A DNA stretch of 60,378 nt, from the NCBI GenBank assembly GCA_036565725.1, contig DATCXQ010000398.1, forward strand, positions 1 to 60,378, written 5' to 3'. The position numbers were made by a program, and so were the translations under genes. The notes beneath the pieces are model-generated. The model worked only from the letters and a program-made list of their open reading frames with translations. It searched no databases and had not been told where the DNA came from. Shown here piece by piece: positions 1 through 6,021 of the stretch; the first letter of the stretch is position 1; each line of letters begins with the position of its first letter. Source of the DNA: Blastocatellia bacterium. Its GTDB lineage: Bacteria; Acidobacteriota; Blastocatellia; RBC074.

Positions 1-489
1 CCACAAATCGGCCGTGGCCGTGAATGACGCGTCCGGCGCGGGCGCCTGATATTGATTGTCGGGTTCGAGCAGCAGTATCACGCCCCAGTCGCGCCGCTCA
101 TAGTCCGCCATCAGCCAGCAGTCTTCAAATTCCTCTCTAGAGTAGACAGTCAACCCGGCCGCCGGATCCGCGATGTAAACACGATCGCCGCGAATACGAT
201 GGACGACTACATAGTGTCCATACGGCCAGAAGACGATGCACGGTAAAGGGGCCTTTTGCTTGAGGTCGTTGAACGAAATCTTGACGCTCAGGGTACGAAA
301 CCCCAGGCGCTCCGCCCCATGGGCGATGGCCGAAAGCGAACTGCCCTGCCGGTCGTGTGGACATACCTCGCGGATAAACTGCCGCGGAAACTCTCGCCCG
401 TGATACCGCGCGATCATGTCGAGACACGCCAAACCGCAATCCATCTTGTCAAGCTGATAGCTTATGGGAAAACGTTTTCGCCAAAACAT
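1..489 (-). CDS. Peptidase C39 domain-containing ABC transporter (double-glycine leader-cleaving RiPP/bacteriocin exporter); N-terminal 163 aa only, gene runs off the window
   Basis: Absent from the ORF track because there is no stop in the window. Manual minus-strand translation from ATG at 489 gives MFWRKRFPISYQLDKMDCGLACLDMIARYHGREFP...PCIVFWPYGHYVVVHRIRGDRVYIADPAAG. It carries the C39 catalytic Cys (DCGLACL), His (GHYVVV) and Asp (IADP) motifs. It starts 14 nt after the stop of the SPASM gene on the same strand. Confidence 0.8.
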   Translation of the reverse strand, partial: MFWRKRFPISYQLDKMDCGLACLDMIARYHGREFPRQFIREVCPHDRQGSSLSAIAHGAERLGFRTLSVKISFNDLKQKAPLPCIVFWPYGHYVVVHRIRGDRVYIADPAAGLTVYSREEFEDCWLMADYERRDWGVILLLEPDNQYQAPAPDASFTATADLW

Positions 490-502
490 AGCTTTTTCTG
501 AC

Positions 503-1552
503 CTACGCGGAGATTACCTCGGCGCCCTGGCTTCCTGGTTCTTTCCACTTGGCGGTATAAGGATCATAGGAACATTTTGCAGGCTTCGAATAGGGGTTCC
601 CGCTTTCACGCGTGTAAGCCCTGCAATCCGTACAGACATAACGGAACTCGCAATCACGACAGACTTCCACCTGATCCTTGGTAATCCGACTCATCTGCAC
701 CAATCGCGGATCATTCACCGCCCTCGCCAGACTGGTATGGCGGATGTTACCCAATGAATCTTTCATTGACGGACAGTGTCGGATTTCTCCGTCAGCGGCG
801 ACGCTGATCTTTTTGTTGAGACAGGTATTGAATTGCAGAGCCTCGGTGAAGTGCTCCAGGCAAGGCGAAAAAAAGGCCGGAGATACTTCGCCGCACGAAT
901 TCGGAGTCACGCGATAAGTATCAAAGACAACCGGAATCGGAAGTGATCCGGCCAGGCTCTGAGATCGGTGCGGGCTGGAATGGACGATAACCTGGGATAC
1001 CACTTGATGGCGCCGGCAGAATTCGATCAGCGAATCTGTCGTCAGTTCCGCCTGATATCCGATTATCATTTCAAGGTGGCGCAACCGCCCACTCTCCGCG
1101 GCAAGCAAGATTGTCTCCAGTTGCTCGAATGACAGCGGGTCATAGGCGCGCACCTGTACGGCCTGACATCCCAGATCTTCGAGCTGAGAGAAGATGTCCT
1201 GATAACTGTGATTTGAGCGGCTGGTGACATCGATAATCGCATTGGTCACGGCCTCAGGTCTTCTCCACGAAAGATCCAGTTCAGGGAAAAGCTCGGGATC
1301 TTCAAACCAATCTCCATAGCCTCGCTCAACGAGCAGGTTAAAATACTCATCGATGATCTCGCCGCACTGCGGCGTGAAATGCCGTTTAATCTCCGGCGCC
1401 GGCAGCCCCTTATATTCCGTGAGAATTTTGAAGAGATCATTCGGGATCAGTTGTATTCGCCAGTTCTGAAGGTCACAGATCGAGCTTCTGCGAGAACCTT
1501 TTACTGGTATGCAGTTGGCGTATAGCATGAAGATATCATCTCTTTCCTTCAT
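503..1552 (-). CDS. SPASM-domain peptide maturase of the 'grasp-with-spasm' type; no radical-SAM CxxxCxxC motif
   Basis: The C-terminus has a Cys-rich SPASM signature (NSCGE, SPCLE, NTCLN, RHCPS, CRDCEFRYVCTDCRA, AKCSY). The N-terminus begins FMLYANCIPVKG, typical of this family as I recall it. No CxxxCxxC occurs anywhere in the N-terminal 250 aa. Start moved from 1621 to the ATG at 1552, which has GGAGG 9 nt upstream. Confidence 0.75.
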   Translation of the reverse strand: MKERDDIFMLYANCIPVKGSRRSSICDLQNWRIQLIPNDLFKILTEYKGLPAPEIKRHFTPQCGEIIDEYFNLLVERGYGDWFEDPELFPELDLSWRRPEAVTNAIIDVTSRSNHSYQDIFSQLEDLGCQAVQVRAYDPLSFEQLETILLAAESGRLRHLEMIIGYQAELTTDSLIEFCRRHQVVSQVIVHSSPHRSQSLAGSLPIPVVFDTYRVTPNSCGEVSPAFFSPCLEHFTEALQFNTCLNKKISVAADGEIRHCPSMKDSLGNIRHTSLARAVNDPRLVQMSRITKDQVEVCRDCEFRYVCTDCRAYTRESGNPYSKPAKCSYDPYTAKWKEPGSQGAEVISA

Positions 1553-1734
1553 CCGGCTTGGCCTCCATTTTTCCCAGCGGCAAGGGCCTCGAGATATGTT
1601 TGTAGAAAGTGAAGCACCCATAAAAGTCCGAGCGTGCGGCGGCGCTTTTGCGAAACCTGGTTGAATATTCGGGCCGTGGCGCCTCCTCCATCATCATCAT
1701 GTGCATGGGAAGCTGCGCTTCTTCGGCGAAGTGT

Positions 1735-2760
1735 TTAGCTCGTGGGTTTTTCTGTTTCATAAAGACGGTCGGCCAGGGCTCTGGCCACTTTCTCTTCAAG
1801 AAAATAGTTACAGGGTTCCGAAACCATTCCGAATTGACCAACCGGATTGACTTCGAGAAAGACGTCGCGCCCGTCCACGGTACGAATCATGTCGATTGAT
1901 CCGGTATCGAGACGTAGAGCTTTCATCAACGACCTCAACCTGTCTTCGACCTGCGGCTGTAGTCGATAAGGGACAGTTCTCGTAGGACGATCGTATGAAT
2001 ATTTCCTGAAATCTGTCTGCGTCATGACGTTGTCTTGGGTAAACATCGCCATGCTGTAGCATTCGCCGTCCAGGTAGAAAATGCGAATCTCATATTTCTT
2101 ACGGAGTTTTTCCTGAAACAGCGAGGGGAAAGTTCCTTGCCAAGCCTCATTTACTAAAAACTCCTCCGACACGGAAGAAGTGTAGTTGGCATAGAGCTTT
2201 CCATCGAAATTACACATGAGCATCTCGGAAATCGACTTGGTGATGATCTCTCCATGTCTGGCGGCAAATCTACGCGCCTCTTCCATGCTGGTGGTCACGA
2301 TCGTCTCCGGAATGTCCAACCCCATCTCCGCAGCCAGCTTCAGCACCTGCAGTTTGTTAACGGAGGCATTCGCCGGATCACTCAACCATTTTGCGGAAGC
2401 CATGCGCGAGAAGAGAAAGTGGCTGACCCCCTGTAACTCTCGAAAGACGTGTAAATAGGTCGAGTAGATATTGGTTGCGGTCGAGTGCCCGTGATCTCTA
2501 AAGAGGTCAGCACTCCGGTATGAGTTTCTATACGCCCAGCGGCGATACCAGACCACTCTTATTTCATCAGTTACCATGGTTACACCGTCAATCGCCAGAC
2601 GATCTTTCACACCTGTATTGCCGATTGAAATTAACATGCCGCCACGGCTGTCAATATCTGACCCGTTGATCCGAATAAAGGGGACTTTCCATGACCGGAG
2701 CCAGTCCATCACCTCCTCAGTGGAGGTCTCTACCTGAGAATGACTTAAAATACAGATCAT
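1735..2760 (-). CDS. ATP-grasp peptide maturase ('grasp-with-spasm' type, graspetide-like macrocyclase)
   Basis: 341 aa. The N-terminus MICILSHSQVETSTEEVMDWLRSW resembles the pre-ATP-grasp region of RiPP ATP-grasp ligases. The C-terminus has ATP-grasp-like segments (YEIRIFYLDGECYSMAMF, FLEVNPVGQFG). It lies directly upstream of the SPASM gene. Confidence 0.75.
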   Translation of the reverse strand: MICILSHSQVETSTEEVMDWLRSWKVPFIRINGSDIDSRGGMLISIGNTGVKDRLAIDGVTMVTDEIRVVWYRRWAYRNSYRSADLFRDHGHSTATNIYSTYLHVFRELQGVSHFLFSRMASAKWLSDPANASVNKLQVLKLAAEMGLDIPETIVTTSMEEARRFAARHGEIITKSISEMLMCNFDGKLYANYTSSVSEEFLVNEAWQGTFPSLFQEKLRKKYEIRIFYLDGECYSMAMFTQDNVMTQTDFRKYSYDRPTRTVPYRLQPQVEDRLRSLMKALRLDTGSIDMIRTVDGRDVFLEVNPVGQFGMVSEPCNYFLEEKVARALADRLYETEKPTS

Positions 2761-2871: not shown

Positions 2872-4659
2872 TTACCCGGCGCCTTGGTTTAGCGCCCCTA
2901 AAGCTTCTTCTATCACTTCAATTTCGTATATATTCGGTTCAATTGTGACGAGACCTTCTCCGCGACGACACACGTATCTGCCGTCATCATCCTTAGTGAA
3001 CCCGGCCTGAAGGAATAAGTGTCGACAGGGTTCGTTATAGTGGGTCTCGACAATACGGCCCCAGACATCACACTTTGCCCAGCGACAATGACGTAAGACT
3101 GACACGAGGAAGACCGTCTCTACTTTGAGGCCAAGCACCCGGCAGCTCATCACGAAAGTGTCAATCTCTCCCGCTCTAATCAGGCATACGCCGACCAGTC
3201 CATAATTGGTGAATTTATCGGCCACTTCCATTGTGTAGAGTTCTGTGTCTGGAGAAGATAAGAAGGCGCGTATCGCGCTGACATCGTAAGAGGTTTGAGT
3301 AGTGTTGAATTGATGCGTCCTCCGGATTAGCTCGGCGACGCGATCCAGTTTAGCCCCAGCTCGGACAAGCGTGACACGTACTTTGATTCGCAAACTTTGT
3401 AGAAACGATCGCTCGTCGATACTCGTCCGACGTTCCTCCTCGCGACGAAGTTGCGCTTTGGTCATCGTAGTGCGCGATTGCGCTTCTTGGGTAAGAGATA
3501 CCACCTCCATGCGCGGGTCAGACAGGAGGTTATAGCGCGTGGTTGTCGAACGCGAGTCTAAGACCGTCATCTCCGGGTGAAATTGCTTAACCTCCTCGCG
3601 CTCTACAGGGTGATCATCTATGAAGATAAAGGAATCCTTCGTAAAGCCCAGCATCGATATGATCTCTCGAACGTTTTCTGATTTTCGTTCCCAATTAATC
3701 TTATGAATGACAAAGTCGTCCGGTTCGAGAATGTAATTAAAGCCATAAGATTTGGCGGACGTTGCCAATTCGGCCCAAGGACCAATAACATTTTCCTGAG
3801 TGTTCTTACTGCATGACGCCAATAGGATTCCTTTCTCTTTTGCAAGTTTCAGCGCCTCATGCAATCCTCCGAATTCCGACATGGCCATCTCCAAAACATT
3901 AATTTGCTGCTTCCCATTTCCGATCTCTCCCGGCCAAAGTGTGTTATCTAAATCGGTGATGATGCACTTAATCCTTCCTCGCCCAGTCCACATCCTGAAG
4001 ATATCGAGATATTCCATGGCCATCACCACTAACGGTTTGTGATTTAACGGAGACCGTTCAGTGGTCAGGTTGTAAGGCTGAGCGCCCATGTAGTTCACAT
4101 AAGCCCCCGGGGAGTAATCCAGCAGTTGTCGCTTACCCAAGTTAGCGAATATCCGTTCTTCGTCGATGAAGAATGCGTTGGGGTTATCGCGAATCAGATT
4201 GCAGATGTGCTCGTTAACCTCAAATAGTATCCGCCTATAACTTACTTCCGAACGAAATTCCATTCTCCCACGGGGAAGGAGGGGTGGGCCGGCAAGTCCC
4301 TGTACAAGTATGAGACGCCCCGAAGACTTTGACAGAGCTGCTTGAATCGTAACAGTCAGATAGTCTTTAATCGCTTCGACTCGTTCTAAACGAGACGCCT
4401 CATCAATGACGGCCGAGGTATCCCAAAGTGGATTCAGTACGTTAATATTCCATGGGTACAGGATAATGATATCGGATGAATGTTGATCTATAACGTCTAA
4501 ATCCTTCGCGGTAACAGCGACTCCATCTACCGTTATTCCCTGCGAGGAAGCAACCTTCTTCAACACCTCCAATCGACGCGCCGCAAGGCAATCGGCGAGC
4601 ATCACCACACAGAGAGAATAATTATCGGCGCCCGATATTTTGTCTGTTTTGGCGGTCAT
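2872..4659 (-). CDS. FkbH-like HAD-IIIC phosphatase-family protein with C-terminal GNAT-like acyltransferase domain
   Basis: The HAD motif I context CIITDLDNTLWPGEIG and later FIFIDDHPVEREEV are typical of the FkbH/HAD-IIIC subfamily. The C-terminal ~140 aa (NYGLVGVCLIRAGEIDTFVMSCRVLGLKVE) look GNAT-like. Start set at the internal ATG at 4659 (MTAKTDKISG); the ORF track starts at 4746. Confidence 0.65.
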   Translation of the reverse strand: MTAKTDKISGADNYSLCVVMLADCLAARRLEVLKKVASSQGITVDGVAVTAKDLDVIDQHSSDIIILYPWNINVLNPLWDTSAVIDEASRLERVEAIKDYLTVTIQAALSKSSGRLILVQGLAGPPLLPRGRMEFRSEVSYRRILFEVNEHICNLIRDNPNAFFIDEERIFANLGKRQLLDYSPGAYVNYMGAQPYNLTTERSPLNHKPLVVMAMEYLDIFRMWTGRGRIKCIITDLDNTLWPGEIGNGKQQINVLEMAMSEFGGLHEALKLAKEKGILLASCSKNTQENVIGPWAELATSAKSYGFNYILEPDDFVIHKINWERKSENVREIISMLGFTKDSFIFIDDHPVEREEVKQFHPEMTVLDSRSTTTRYNLLSDPRMEVVSLTQEAQSRTTMTKAQLRREEERRTSIDERSFLQSLRIKVRVTLVRAGAKLDRVAELIRRTHQFNTTQTSYDVSAIRAFLSSPDTELYTMEVADKFTNYGLVGVCLIRAGEIDTFVMSCRVLGLKVETVFLVSVLRHCRWAKCDVWGRIVETHYNEPCRHLFLQAGFTKDDDGRYVCRRGEGLVTIEPNIYEIEVIEEALGALNQGAG

Positions 4660-4843
4660 TCTAGTTTGTCCCCAATGCGGAGGTTTTGAAGTAACTGCCG
4701 CGTTGTAACCTTTCGACCGGCAATGATTAGTGAAAAGCCGTACCATGCGATTATTAGCTCGCGGCCGTCGCTGAGGTATGTCATAGCTGCGTCAGCGGCG
4801 ATTTAGCGGTCAATTCGGCCGTCTCTGACCACGATTATCAATT

Positions 4844-4874
4844 GCGCACCCTGATCTTTACGATCAGGATGCGC
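4844..4874 (-). terminator. Hairpin 25 nt downstream of the precursor stop codon; possible attenuator or partial terminator between precursor and enzyme genes
   Basis: GCGCACCCTGATC-tttac-GATCAGGATGCGC forms a 13-bp stem with one mismatch. No clear U-tract follows on the minus strand, so at most a weak or partial terminator or an RNA-stabilising stem. Confidence 0.3.
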
Positions 4875-4898
4875 ATATGATAGCTAGGGGAACATCAA

Positions 4899-5099
4899 TT
4901 AGAACTCGTAATCGACGTCCGCATCCACCTGCGGGTTGAAACCGCCGTTATCGTTGGTGGCGACGAAACTACTGGCGCTCCCGCTGAGTTTGGGCTTTCC
5001 TCCGACGATCCATGAAGCATCTTCCAGATCAAAGGAGTTGAACATCTCACTATTAATACTTTCGAGTTCTCCGCGATTTACTGTTTCTTTCTCTTTCAT
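4899..5099 (-). CDS. RiPP precursor peptide with double-glycine leader (66 aa)
   Basis: MKEKETVNRGELESINSEMFNSFDLEDASWIVGG | KPKLSGSASSFVATNDNGGFNPQVDADVDYEF. The ATG at 5099 is preceded by AAGGA 7 nt upstream. The acidic, helical-looking leader ends in IVGG. The core is rich in Lys/Ser/Thr and Asp/Glu. It is the first gene of the operon that ends in a C39-ABC exporter. Confidence 0.65.
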   Translation of the reverse strand: MKEKETVNRGELESINSEMFNSFDLEDASWIVGGKPKLSGSASSFVATNDNGGFNPQVDADVDYEF

Positions 5100-5309
5100 G
5101 TGATTTCCTTTCATTTGTTGACGGCCGGCAAAAAGCCGCGCCATGCGATTACCCCGGCGCCAGAGCAGAAGTCAGTGACATCCTATGTCGCTGACACCCT
5201 GCAGTCGGAAAAACTCTGACCAACAGGTAGGCCTCATTTTCTACGACTAACACCGGGCCTTGATTACTGAGGCGCATTCACTTTATAGCACTGACTCATT
5301 CTGATTTCC

Positions 5310-5345
5310 TTGATAAATCGCAACCCCGCGCTTGATAAATAGCAA
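5310..5345. promoter_or_regulatory. Two FNR/CRP-like boxes (TTGAT-N4-xxCAA), 22 bp apart, upstream of the precursor gene
   Basis: TTGATAAATCGCAA (5310-5323) and TTGATAAATAGCAA (5332-5345). Each has one perfect TTGAT half-site and a 3/5 or 4/5 match to ATCAA. The centre-to-centre spacing of 22 bp is two helical turns. They lie between the Crp/Fnr gene stop and the precursor start. Confidence 0.35.
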
Positions 5346-5352
5346 GCCCTGA

Positions 5353-6021
5353 CTACTCTCCAGCTTCCTGAAGTAGCTTCTCGAGGTTAGTTACTATAAT
5401 CCACCCGCGCTCTTGCTCAATTACCTCTTTCTTTGCCAGCTCTGCCAGGAGCCGGCTTAATTGCTCGGGCCGGACTGCCAAAAGACCGGCTATATCGGTC
5501 TTCTTGAGAGGAATATGTATTCTGATTTTGCCATTCGAATGCGGAATACGCGGTGAAATGTGTCTTAACAGGTAGCTGGCGAGACGTTGGCGAGATGAGG
5601 CCGCCCCGAGCCAGGCGTGCCGTATAACCTGCTCACATGAGTATTTGCTGACGAGTCTAAGTAGGGATTTCGTTAAATCAGGCTCTTGCTCAACGAGTGT
5701 AAGAAACAGGCGCGTGTTCAAACTAATCGCAGAACATGTTGTAAGTGTAGTAGCAGTGACGGTGGCCGGGAGCTGGCTTAAAACTGACGTTATTCCCAAA
5801 ATTTGTACGGCCTCGGCGATTTCGATAACTACCTCGTTGCCACAATATTCCGTGCGAGCCATCTTTACCTTGCCTTCTTCCAGCAAGTATACGCCTCCAA
5901 TTATCTGCTCCTGTCGGAATATTTCTATATTAGGCGGAAATGTATGTAACACGCCGTGTGACCGTATAATATCAAAAGCGGTGTGGCTGTTTTCCTGGGT
6001 AGGCATACCTTCTTTCATCAA
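5353..6021 (-). CDS. Crp/Fnr family transcriptional regulator
   Basis: It has an N-terminal cNMP-binding-like beta-roll (GGVYLLEEGKVKMARTEYCGNEVVIEI) and a C-terminal HTH (KKTDIAGLLAVRPEQLSRLLAEL). Confidence 0.8.
   Translation of the reverse strand: MMKEGMPTQENSHTAFDIIRSHGVLHTFPPNIEIFRQEQIIGGVYLLEEGKVKMARTEYCGNEVVIEIAEAVQILGITSVLSQLPATVTATTLTTCSAISLNTRLFLTLVEQEPDLTKSLLRLVSKYSCEQVIRHAWLGAASSRQRLASYLLRHISPRIPHSNGKIRIHIPLKKTDIAGLLAVRPEQLSRLLAELAKKEVIEQERGWIIVTNLEKLLQEAGE

Follow-up and report, generated by a model that had tools for sequence, protein, structure and literature searches.

The 60,378-nt window analysed here (contig DATCXQ010000398.1) encodes on its minus strand, at positions 4899..5099, a 66-aa peptide that is very likely the modified substrate (precursor, or A-peptide) of the graspetide operon in which it lies, an operon of the grasp-with-spasm type. 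The comparisons described below support its assignment as a double-glycine-leader precursor that would be acted on by an ATP-grasp macrocyclase and then cleaved and exported by the C39 peptidase/ATP-binding cassette (ABC) protein of the same operon. The specific map of nested rings proposed for the product is a bolder claim, evenly poised between right and wrong. A previous sequence-only reading of this region had proposed the precursor and its match to these enzymes; it did not mention three further members of the operon, a SPASM-domain protein, a 74-aa small protein and an FkbH-like enzyme, all of which probably act on or with the peptide. The locus is a variant of a graspetide group that has been defined bioinformatically and is chemically uncharacterised, and so is not categorically new.

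The precursor gene and its family

The precursor open reading frame (ORF) runs on the minus strand from an ATG at 5099..5097 to a TAA at 4901..4899 (66 codons). Leader codons 1-34 occupy positions 5099..4998 and encode 34 aa ending in IVGG, and core codons 35-66 occupy positions 4997..4902 and encode 32 aa. The ORF and its translation were reproduced exactly as first described. The Shine-Dalgarno (SD) sequence AAGGA reported to precede it is likewise present, at 5106..5110 on the same strand and 6 nt upstream of the ATG, and is kept in all precursor copies of the related loci L014-L016. The length of this ORF is not significant in itself (within or across the first 16 kb of the window there are 126 ORFs of 40 aa or more). 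Because its size is unremarkable, the case for it rests on comparative evidence, and its significance comes from its homologues (E-values: 1e-26 to 1e-30), from conserved gene order and from the substitution pattern.

An alternative in-frame ATG lies further upstream, at 5144, and would give a product of 81 aa. This start was rejected: the extension corresponds to a conserved 5' untranslated region (UTR) that is repeated before the FkbH-like gene. The 66-aa start is favoured because 76 of 79 family members begin at its Met (MKE…) and because the second tandem copy in L014, which retains the SD and ATG, lacks the extension.

A direct search returned eight metagenomic homologues of the precursor (79-85% identity), which differ from it through substitutions and in-frame indels only. 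An identical peptide, in the same operon context, recurs on 16 metagenome contigs, at least two of them from soil as judged from sample identifiers. L014-16 and L024-26 share the gene order of the window, and in both L014 and L015 the precursor gene is present as two tandem copies, each with its own SD and hairpin. In a codon comparison of six copies, a small sample, the proportions of nonsynonymous (pN) and synonymous (pS) differences are 0.046 and 0.140 in the leader (pN/pS ~0.33) and 0.088 and 0.115 in the core (pN/pS ~0.77). As far as these substitutions indicate, constraint is stronger on the leader than on the core, which is the usual picture for precursors of peptides that are ribosomally synthesized and then post-translationally modified (RiPPs).

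More distant relatives were collected with profiles. The first profile search, of 1.84 billion representative proteins and made with no word index, gave 27 matches. Three of these (P0018, P0027 and P0029) were judged spurious; they are 1,000-1,200 aa in length, contain 8 repeats (to which the profile had matched) and have no leader. The second profile search brought the family to at least 132 proteins, all unnamed, all metagenomic and none with a Pfam domain. The family is soil-bacterial, sizeable (>130 members) and outside current protein-family libraries, being missed by the current Pfam and NCBIfam models. The string ELESIN was not found in the part of the 2026 RODEO graspetide dataset that was examined.

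The possibility that the ORF is not a gene, and is instead a chance frame within a conserved non-coding leader region, draws on the good conservation of the flanking non-coding DNA among the closest contigs and on the commonness of short ORFs. The frame, however, stays open throughout the 132 homologues, down to ~35% identity and with in-frame indels only. The low pN/pS ratio of the leader, the conservation of the SD and ATG and the tandem duplication of whole SD-ORF-hairpin units also speak against it. The comparative data effectively refute this explanation, which is left with a negligible probability.

The leader is the most conserved part of the peptide. Column counts for the family, here and below, come from 99 unique sequences and use window numbering. 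The leader consensus is M-K-E-N-E-T-x4-E-L-E-S-I-N-S-E-L-F-x-S-F-D-P-E-[DQ]-[EA]-[LS]-W-I-[IV]-G-G, in which E13, F20, F23 and G33 are invariant. Leader columns mostly carry 3-4.3 bits of information and those of the hypervariable core mostly 2 bits or less. The conserved string ELESINSE-F-SFD-ED-SWI-GG provides a handle for genome mining. Joined to hypervariable cores and present in as many as nine tandem copies, this leader amounts to a natural library for the engineering of stapled beta-hairpins.

The double glycine that precedes the core is nearly universal (G33 in 99/99 and G34 in 97/99 sequences). The sequence-only reading had described a double-glycine leader with the usual residues at its characteristic positions. 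This holds for the terminal IVGG, for Ile at -4 (I/V in 98/99) and for Phe at -12 and -15 (both 99/99), but at -7 the window has Ala and the family has Glu or Ala. The C39 peptidase of the operon, the proposed partner of this leader, has the catalytic Cys and His motifs. The second GG of the core (NDNGGF), put forward as an alternative processing site, was rejected. It falls within the turn of the modelled hairpin. Two close relatives, P0070 and P0085, have DRND and DKNT at this place, and elsewhere in the family it corresponds to a generic Gly/Asn/Pro turn; no leader-like helix precedes NDNGG.

The sequence-only reading had named the lack of a conserved small ORF at this place in related clusters as a result that would refute it. 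The opposite was observed: all the related clusters examined have such an ORF there, often in several tandem copies. Across the family clusters, one to nine tandem precursor copies lie directly 5' of the same enzyme set. Four larger contigs (L017-L021) carry 2-9 tandem precursors followed by genes for an ATP-grasp protein (56-59% identity to that of the window), a small protein of ~70 aa, a SPASM protein (59-60% identity) and a C39/ABC exporter, after which come a ~184-aa protein and an ADOP-family duplicated permease. The window itself contains exactly one member of the precursor family.

These loci also bear on whether the peptide is modified at all. Double-glycine leaders and peptidase-containing ABC transporters (PCATs) also serve unmodified class II bacteriocins. 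The same type of leader and exporter would be expected if the peptide were an unmodified bacteriocin or signalling peptide and the ATP-grasp and SPASM proteins acted on something else. This is very improbable: the operon offers no other candidate substrate, with its single family member, the precursors and the ATP-grasp/SPASM pair co-occur in every locus examined, and the conserved positions of the core are exactly Ser/Thr and Asp.

A stem-loop lies just 3' of the precursor stop codon (4836..4882, minus strand), as had been noted from the sequence. Its 14-bp inner stem pairs 4875..4862 with 4856..4843 and is followed by no U-tract. The 86-nt region that was folded has a minimum free energy of -32.8 kcal/mol (z = -4.75 relative to shuffled sequences), and the hairpin persists in related contigs, where 3 of its 22 pairs show compensatory changes. 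It was not scored as a canonical intrinsic terminator in a consensus scan and is probably a transcript-stabilising or attenuating element. Similar hairpins follow some precursor genes in four distant loci. In these (L017, L018, L019 and L021), strong GC-rich hairpins, for example with 14-bp stems, occur after some of the tandem precursor genes and not after all, and the remaining copies are packed 12-21 nt apart. Such uneven placement may set different expression levels for individual cores.

Around the gene, a promoter and terminator consensus scan of positions 4700-5400 found none, an Rfam search of 4600-5450 gave a chance-level match only, and the precursor 5'UTR folds no better than shuffled sequences (z = -1.4). 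A 21-nt stretch upstream of the precursor gene (5131-5151) recurs with 90% identity at 4733..4753 on the minus strand, before the FkbH-like gene (repeat D1). Given that the precursor gene is doubled in tandem in L014 and L015, this repeat is probably the scar of a tandem precursor duplication or loss. The copy also extends the FkbH-like gene spuriously by 29 codons at its N-terminal end (MVRLF…).

Core pattern and predicted cross-links

The core had been described as containing 2 Lys, 4 Ser and 1 Thr, which is correct, together with four Asp and one Glu in the DADVDYE cluster. The cluster exists and holds three Asp and one Glu; the fourth Asp, D50, lies in the predicted turn. The accompanying proposal, that nucleophiles and carboxylates arranged in this way suit an ATP-grasp macrocyclase, agrees with the conservation of both donors and acceptors across the family and with a ligase that passes the TIGR04192 cutoff. 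On the donor side, position 39 is Ser, Thr or Cys in 92/99 sequences and position 43 is Ser or Thr in 93/99. On the acceptor side, D59 is present in 93/98, position 63 is Asp or Glu in 91/96 and position 65 is Asp or Glu in 69/92. K37, S41 and D61 are invariant among the close homologues that form the clade of the window, in which the pattern is an alternating K-x-S-x-S-x-S and D-x-D-x-D-x-E.

Positions 41 and 61 covary. A nucleophile (Ser, Thr or Lys) at 41 is associated with an acid (Asp or Glu) at 61 (odds ratio 10.6, p = 7e-6), and the association persists when the clade of the window is left out (odds ratio 5.1, p = 0.01). Lys at position 41 is accompanied by Glu at position 61 in all three sequences that have it. 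This covariation is suggestive support for a pairing of the two residues, with statistics that ignore phylogeny.

An AlphaFold2 model built with 65 family sequences contains a helix at residues 2-22, a short helix at 29-32 and two strands at 37-48 and 54-65 joined by a turn at N49-G53, with a predicted local distance difference test score (pLDDT) of ~90 over residues 41-60. Because both predicted strands are of equal length, a register of i + j = 102 was adopted, which pairs 43 with 59, 41 with 61, 39 with 63 and 37 with 65. Side-chain esters, possibly with one Lys-Glu amide, may accordingly be nested in a ladder across the modelled hairpin, which is the ring map given even weight above. The 37/65 rung is the weakest and is doubtful because E65 is replaced in two close homologues.

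The same enzymes could instead build rings of another topology, either interlocked or cage-like as in microviridin or limited to two family-wide links between 39 and 43 on one strand and 59 and 63 on the other, whichever way these are paired. In that case, Ser41, Asp61, Lys37 and Glu65 would be structural or target-binding. Positions 39, 43, 59 and 63 are indeed the only ones conserved throughout the family, both pairs are spaced i, i+4 such that the sequence permits nested or crossed pairing, and hairpin and cage connectivities are both known among characterised graspetides (PMC13097080). The 41/61 covariation, including that of Lys with Glu, nevertheless fits the nested register, as does the symmetry of the predicted hairpin, and the alternating SxSxS and DxDxD patterns fit side chains presented on one face of paired strands. 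A different topology is therefore considered rather unlikely. With the nested ladder, the ring-pattern prediction is concrete and has the support of covariation.

The pathway proposed for the operon is as follows. The precursor would be translated as 66 aa and docked on the ATP-grasp ligase by its near-invariant leader, through helix 2-22 with its ELESINSEMF segment and then FDLEDASW, possibly partnered by the SPASM protein, by the LPL-type protein of 74 aa or by both. The core (K35-F66) would fold as a beta-hairpin with its turn at N49-G53. The ligase would phosphorylate Asp side chains of the C-terminal strand (D59, D61, D63 and perhaps E65), and the activated acids would be joined to the facing S43, S41, S39 and perhaps K37, giving a covalent ladder with between two and four nested rings of the macrolactone or lactam type. 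The C39/ABC exporter would then cut after G33-G34 and export the 32-residue product. The hairpin after the stop codon would probably keep the short precursor transcript abundant. A partner role for the SPASM protein is worth testing, because graspetide synthetases that depend on partner proteins have been reported (PMC13097080).

Several points weigh against this account in whole or in part. The precursor peptide has no Pfam or NCBIfam match at E-values up to 0.1 and so fits none of the curated precursor models, and the literature searched contains no solved product for any grasp-with-spasm member. The covariation comes from small, phylogenetically related samples. The hairpin register was derived from the secondary-structure string alone, and the predicted template modelling score (pTM) of the AlphaFold model is low (0.30), as a flexible leader would lead one to expect. 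Two close homologues have Gln or Ala in place of E65, and conservation does not extend to K35. The SPASM and FkbH-like proteins could also alter the final structure.

The window core contains no Cys; cysteine occurs in 12/99 sequences, at a single column. Among the metagenomic family members, variant cores are found in P0020, P0022, P0074, P0088, P0091 and P0092. In P0020 (GPKCEITCTEDGCKITCEWTF), four cysteines at hairpin-symmetric positions replace the Ser/Asp pattern, in a manner that fits a logic of cross-strand bridging, and other variant cores have CEC inserted into their acidic strand. These sequences suggest disulfide or thioester variants built on the same scaffold.

Operon, regulation and the FkbH-like protein

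The genes lie on the same strand in the order Crp/Fnr regulator, precursor, FkbH-like protein, ATP-grasp protein, 74-aa small protein, SPASM protein and C39/ABC exporter. The ATP-grasp peptide maturase (graspetide synthetase) is encoded at 1735..2760, minus strand, by the second gene after the precursor, and matches TIGR04192 with 272 bits (cutoff 230). Its PDB matches are AMdnB (7m4s), MdnB/C (5ig8 and 5ig9; E-values: ~1e-22) and CdnC (7mgv). The 74-aa "LPL"-type small protein (1536..1760, minus strand) overlaps its two neighbours, the ATP-grasp gene at its end and the SPASM gene at its start. No Pfam or NCBIfam model matches the small protein, which is conserved in L014-L021.

The SPASM-domain peptide maturase (349 aa; 503..1552, minus strand) matches TIGR04193 with 299 bits (cutoff 175). 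The radical-SAM motif CxxxCxxC is absent from this protein and from eight homologues, three of them from Bacteroidota (nine proteins checked, with homologues from L014-L021, L002, L010 and L011), and the C-terminal SPASM cysteines are present in the TIGR04193-type proteins checked. Because CxxxCxxC is missing, proteins of this type are unlikely to be canonical radical-SAM enzymes.

The C39 peptidase reported at the end of the operon was recovered as the N-terminal part of a peptidase/ABC exporter (PCAT) at 1..489, minus strand (PF03412, 116 bits), which is cut by the window edge. Its translation contains the motifs QLDKMDCG, GHYVVV and ADP, and a full-length 730-aa homologue is encoded in L024. 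Downstream of the exporter in that locus are an ADOP-family duplicated permease (TIGR03434, 759 bits; L024 10717-13140) and a ~180-aa protein with no family match. These two genes are always 3' of the exporter in L024, L014 and L017-L023, and their products may serve immunity or export. The ADOP permease, which adjoins the exporter in contigs nearly identical to the window, a TIGR02999 extracytoplasmic function (ECF) sigma factor encoded in the window and the probable soil origin of the sequences point to a host that is probably an acidobacterium (Acidobacteriota).

The Crp/Fnr-family transcription regulator (5353..6021, minus strand; PF00027 and PF13545) has a counterpart in the corresponding place in L014, L016 and L024-26. 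The stretch between the regulator and precursor genes contains a pair of FNR/CRP-type boxes (5310..5345, minus strand), TTGCTATTTATCAA and TTGCGATTTATCAA, with a spacing of 22 bp. The boxes lie directly after the Crp/Fnr gene and ~210-245 nt upstream of the precursor start; they represent two of just three matches to the pattern in the 60-kb window. They also form a direct repeat (D2) and are retained in L014 and L016. The adjacent regulator probably controls expression of the operon via these two predicted boxes. More distant family loci have a sigma-54 activator in place of Crp/Fnr-type control.

The FkbH-like protein (595 aa; 2872..4659, minus strand) matches TIGR01686 with 204 bits (cutoff 147); its start at 4659 was set by homologues of 594-595 aa. 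An SGNH-like domain at its N-terminus is followed by a HAD-IIIC phosphatase domain and then by a third, C-terminal part that contains a Ser-Cys-Arg motif. Both the DxDxT motif of the HAD domain and Ser-Cys-Arg are invariant in 44 homologues. The sequence matches BF1531 (3slr) in the PDB. The predicted model (pLDDT 88.6) matches the folds of 3slr, GDSL esterases and MDP-1, with the C-terminal domain unmatched among the top matches of the fold search. Canonical FkbH enzymes need an acyl carrier protein (PMC7489565), and none is encoded in the operon. The position of such a gene beside a precursor, in an operon that encodes no carrier protein, hints at a tailoring step not seen in ribosomal peptides.

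Linkage of FkbH-like genes to clusters of this family is recurrent. In L022, on the same contig as the L019 precursors and ~9 kb past the exporter, a homologue with 60-66% identity is encoded after a Sulfotransfer_4 gene, with a Crp-like regulator next to it; this arrangement recurs in L023, near an ADOP permease. L019 also has an ATP-sulfurylase/APS-kinase gene, and the presence of this and of the Sulfotransfer_4 genes hints at sulfation in those distant clusters. In L014 (10837-12228 of a 110-kb contig), the FkbH-like gene encodes just 463 aa, its N-terminal region being apparently frameshifted relative to that of the window, which could reflect an assembly error or a decaying gene.

These observations raise the question of whether the main modification is made by the FkbH-like protein and/or the SPASM protein and not by the ATP-grasp ligase, for example by attaching a glycolysis-derived glyceryl unit, or another acyl group, to Lys37 or the newly formed N-terminus. 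The FkbH-like gene is the first after the precursor, its HAD DxDxT and Ser-Cys-Arg motifs are intact and the operon is free of the carrier protein gene on which canonical enzymes depend (PMC7489565). The 60-66% identical homologues in the L022 precursor array and beside the ADOP permease in L023 are in line with such a role, as are the segments P36-K37 and F45-Q57 of the precursor, which are strictly conserved in a clade-specific manner. Most family loci, however, have no FkbH-like gene adjoining the precursors, whereas the ATP-grasp gene is universal and the donor/acceptor pattern conserved. FkbH is missing from the graspetide co-occurrence tables, and FkbH-type tailoring of a ribosomal peptide was not found in the literature search. 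Such an enzyme would, moreover, add to grasp cross-linking and not substitute for it. The replacement of ATP-grasp chemistry as the main modification is therefore unlikely.

In another scheme, the FkbH-like protein, with its SGNH-like, HAD phosphatase and putative acyl-S-Cys domains, would tailor the cross-linked hairpin of this clade further. It would load a glycolysis-derived glyceryl (or similar) group and pass this straight on to the peptide, the invariant Lys37 being one possible acceptor, with the SPASM and LPL proteins acting as obligatory partners of the ATP-grasp ligase and not as enzymes. This scheme is speculative and carries a low probability; no ribosomal peptide is known to undergo such chemistry.

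Comparison with known systems

The enzymes and the core set this locus apart from sactipeptide- or ranthipeptide-like systems, as the window maturase lacks CxxxCxxC and the core has no Cys donors. Microviridin (MdnA with MdnB/MdnC; group 1) is closer. Its ATP-grasp ligases are homologous to that of the window, and leader-guided formation of esters and amides between Ser/Thr/Lys and Asp/Glu is shared, being predicted here. The window precursor differs in having neither the PFFARFL leader motif nor the TxKYPSD core, and the window ligase scores far below the cutoffs of the MvdC/MvdD models (TIGR04185, 158 vs 425; TIGR04184, 126 vs 475). The topology predicted here is a nested hairpin rather than a cage, and the exporter here has an active-looking C39 domain.

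Chryseoviridin is a Bacteroidota graspetide with a double-glycine-type leader. Its ATP-grasp enzyme CdnC (7mgv) is homologous to the window ligase (E-value: 1e-21), but the similarity is low (81 bits) and both the precursor family and the core motif are different. Plesiocin, a hairpin-type graspetide, resembles the window in its predicted topology, with nested rings across a beta-hairpin and the donors on one strand and the acceptors on the other. A class with ring-within-ring hairpin connectivity has been described for graspetides (PMC13097080). In contrast to plesiocin, the S-x-S-x-S and D-x-D-x-D spacing of the window would allow up to 3-4 rungs on 12-residue strands. The window also has a single core in place of repeated motifs, an enzyme of another subgroup and a SPASM partner.

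The closest counterparts are the grasp-with-spasm clusters of Bacteroidota. The pairing of an ATP-grasp protein with a TIGR04193 protein constitutes the NCBIfam grasp-with-spasm system, and the window proteins meet both cutoffs. Together with the LPL small protein, this pair defines "Branch 5" (Makarova et al. 2022, PMC8939145), which is described as "highly specific" to Bacteroidetes and in which the gene for an LPL family protein lies directly upstream of that for the SPASM protein (PMC8939145). In RODEO surveys the same type corresponds to graspetide group 14, with 1,643 predicted clusters, all with TIGR04193 (PMC13097080). The window shares with these systems double-glycine-leader precursors directly upstream of the enzymes, a C39/ABC exporter and a SPASM protein without CxxxCxxC. 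It also has a 74-aa ORF at the LPL position, with (L/F)P(L/M) near its N-terminus and C..FYK(H/P)IS(R/K) at its C-terminus, a likeness established by motif-level comparison with ORFs of L001, L003, L006, L007 and L010 (Bacteroidota and related loci). Bacteroidota precursors in L002, L011 and L012 likewise end in Asp-rich segments such as DVDDVD and GDTD.

The differences from the Bacteroidota systems are also clear. The window ATP-grasp protein is just 35-40% identical to its relatives in a contig scan, mostly from Bacteroidota. The precursor matches none of PF14406, TIGR04139 and TIGR04149, the models named in PMC8939145, and its family matches Bacteroidota precursors marginally only. Accessory genes of the window type encode an FkbH-like enzyme, Crp or sigma-54 regulators and an ADOP permease, and the host is probably an acidobacterium rather than a member of Bacteroidota. 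The structure of a grasp-with-spasm product is unreported in the literature searched, and the window supplies a compact operon of this type in which there is just one precursor. Its precursor family extends the grasp-with-spasm system from Bacteroidota to hosts that are probably acidobacteria of soil, members of a phylum (Acidobacteriota) in which peptide natural products have received little study.

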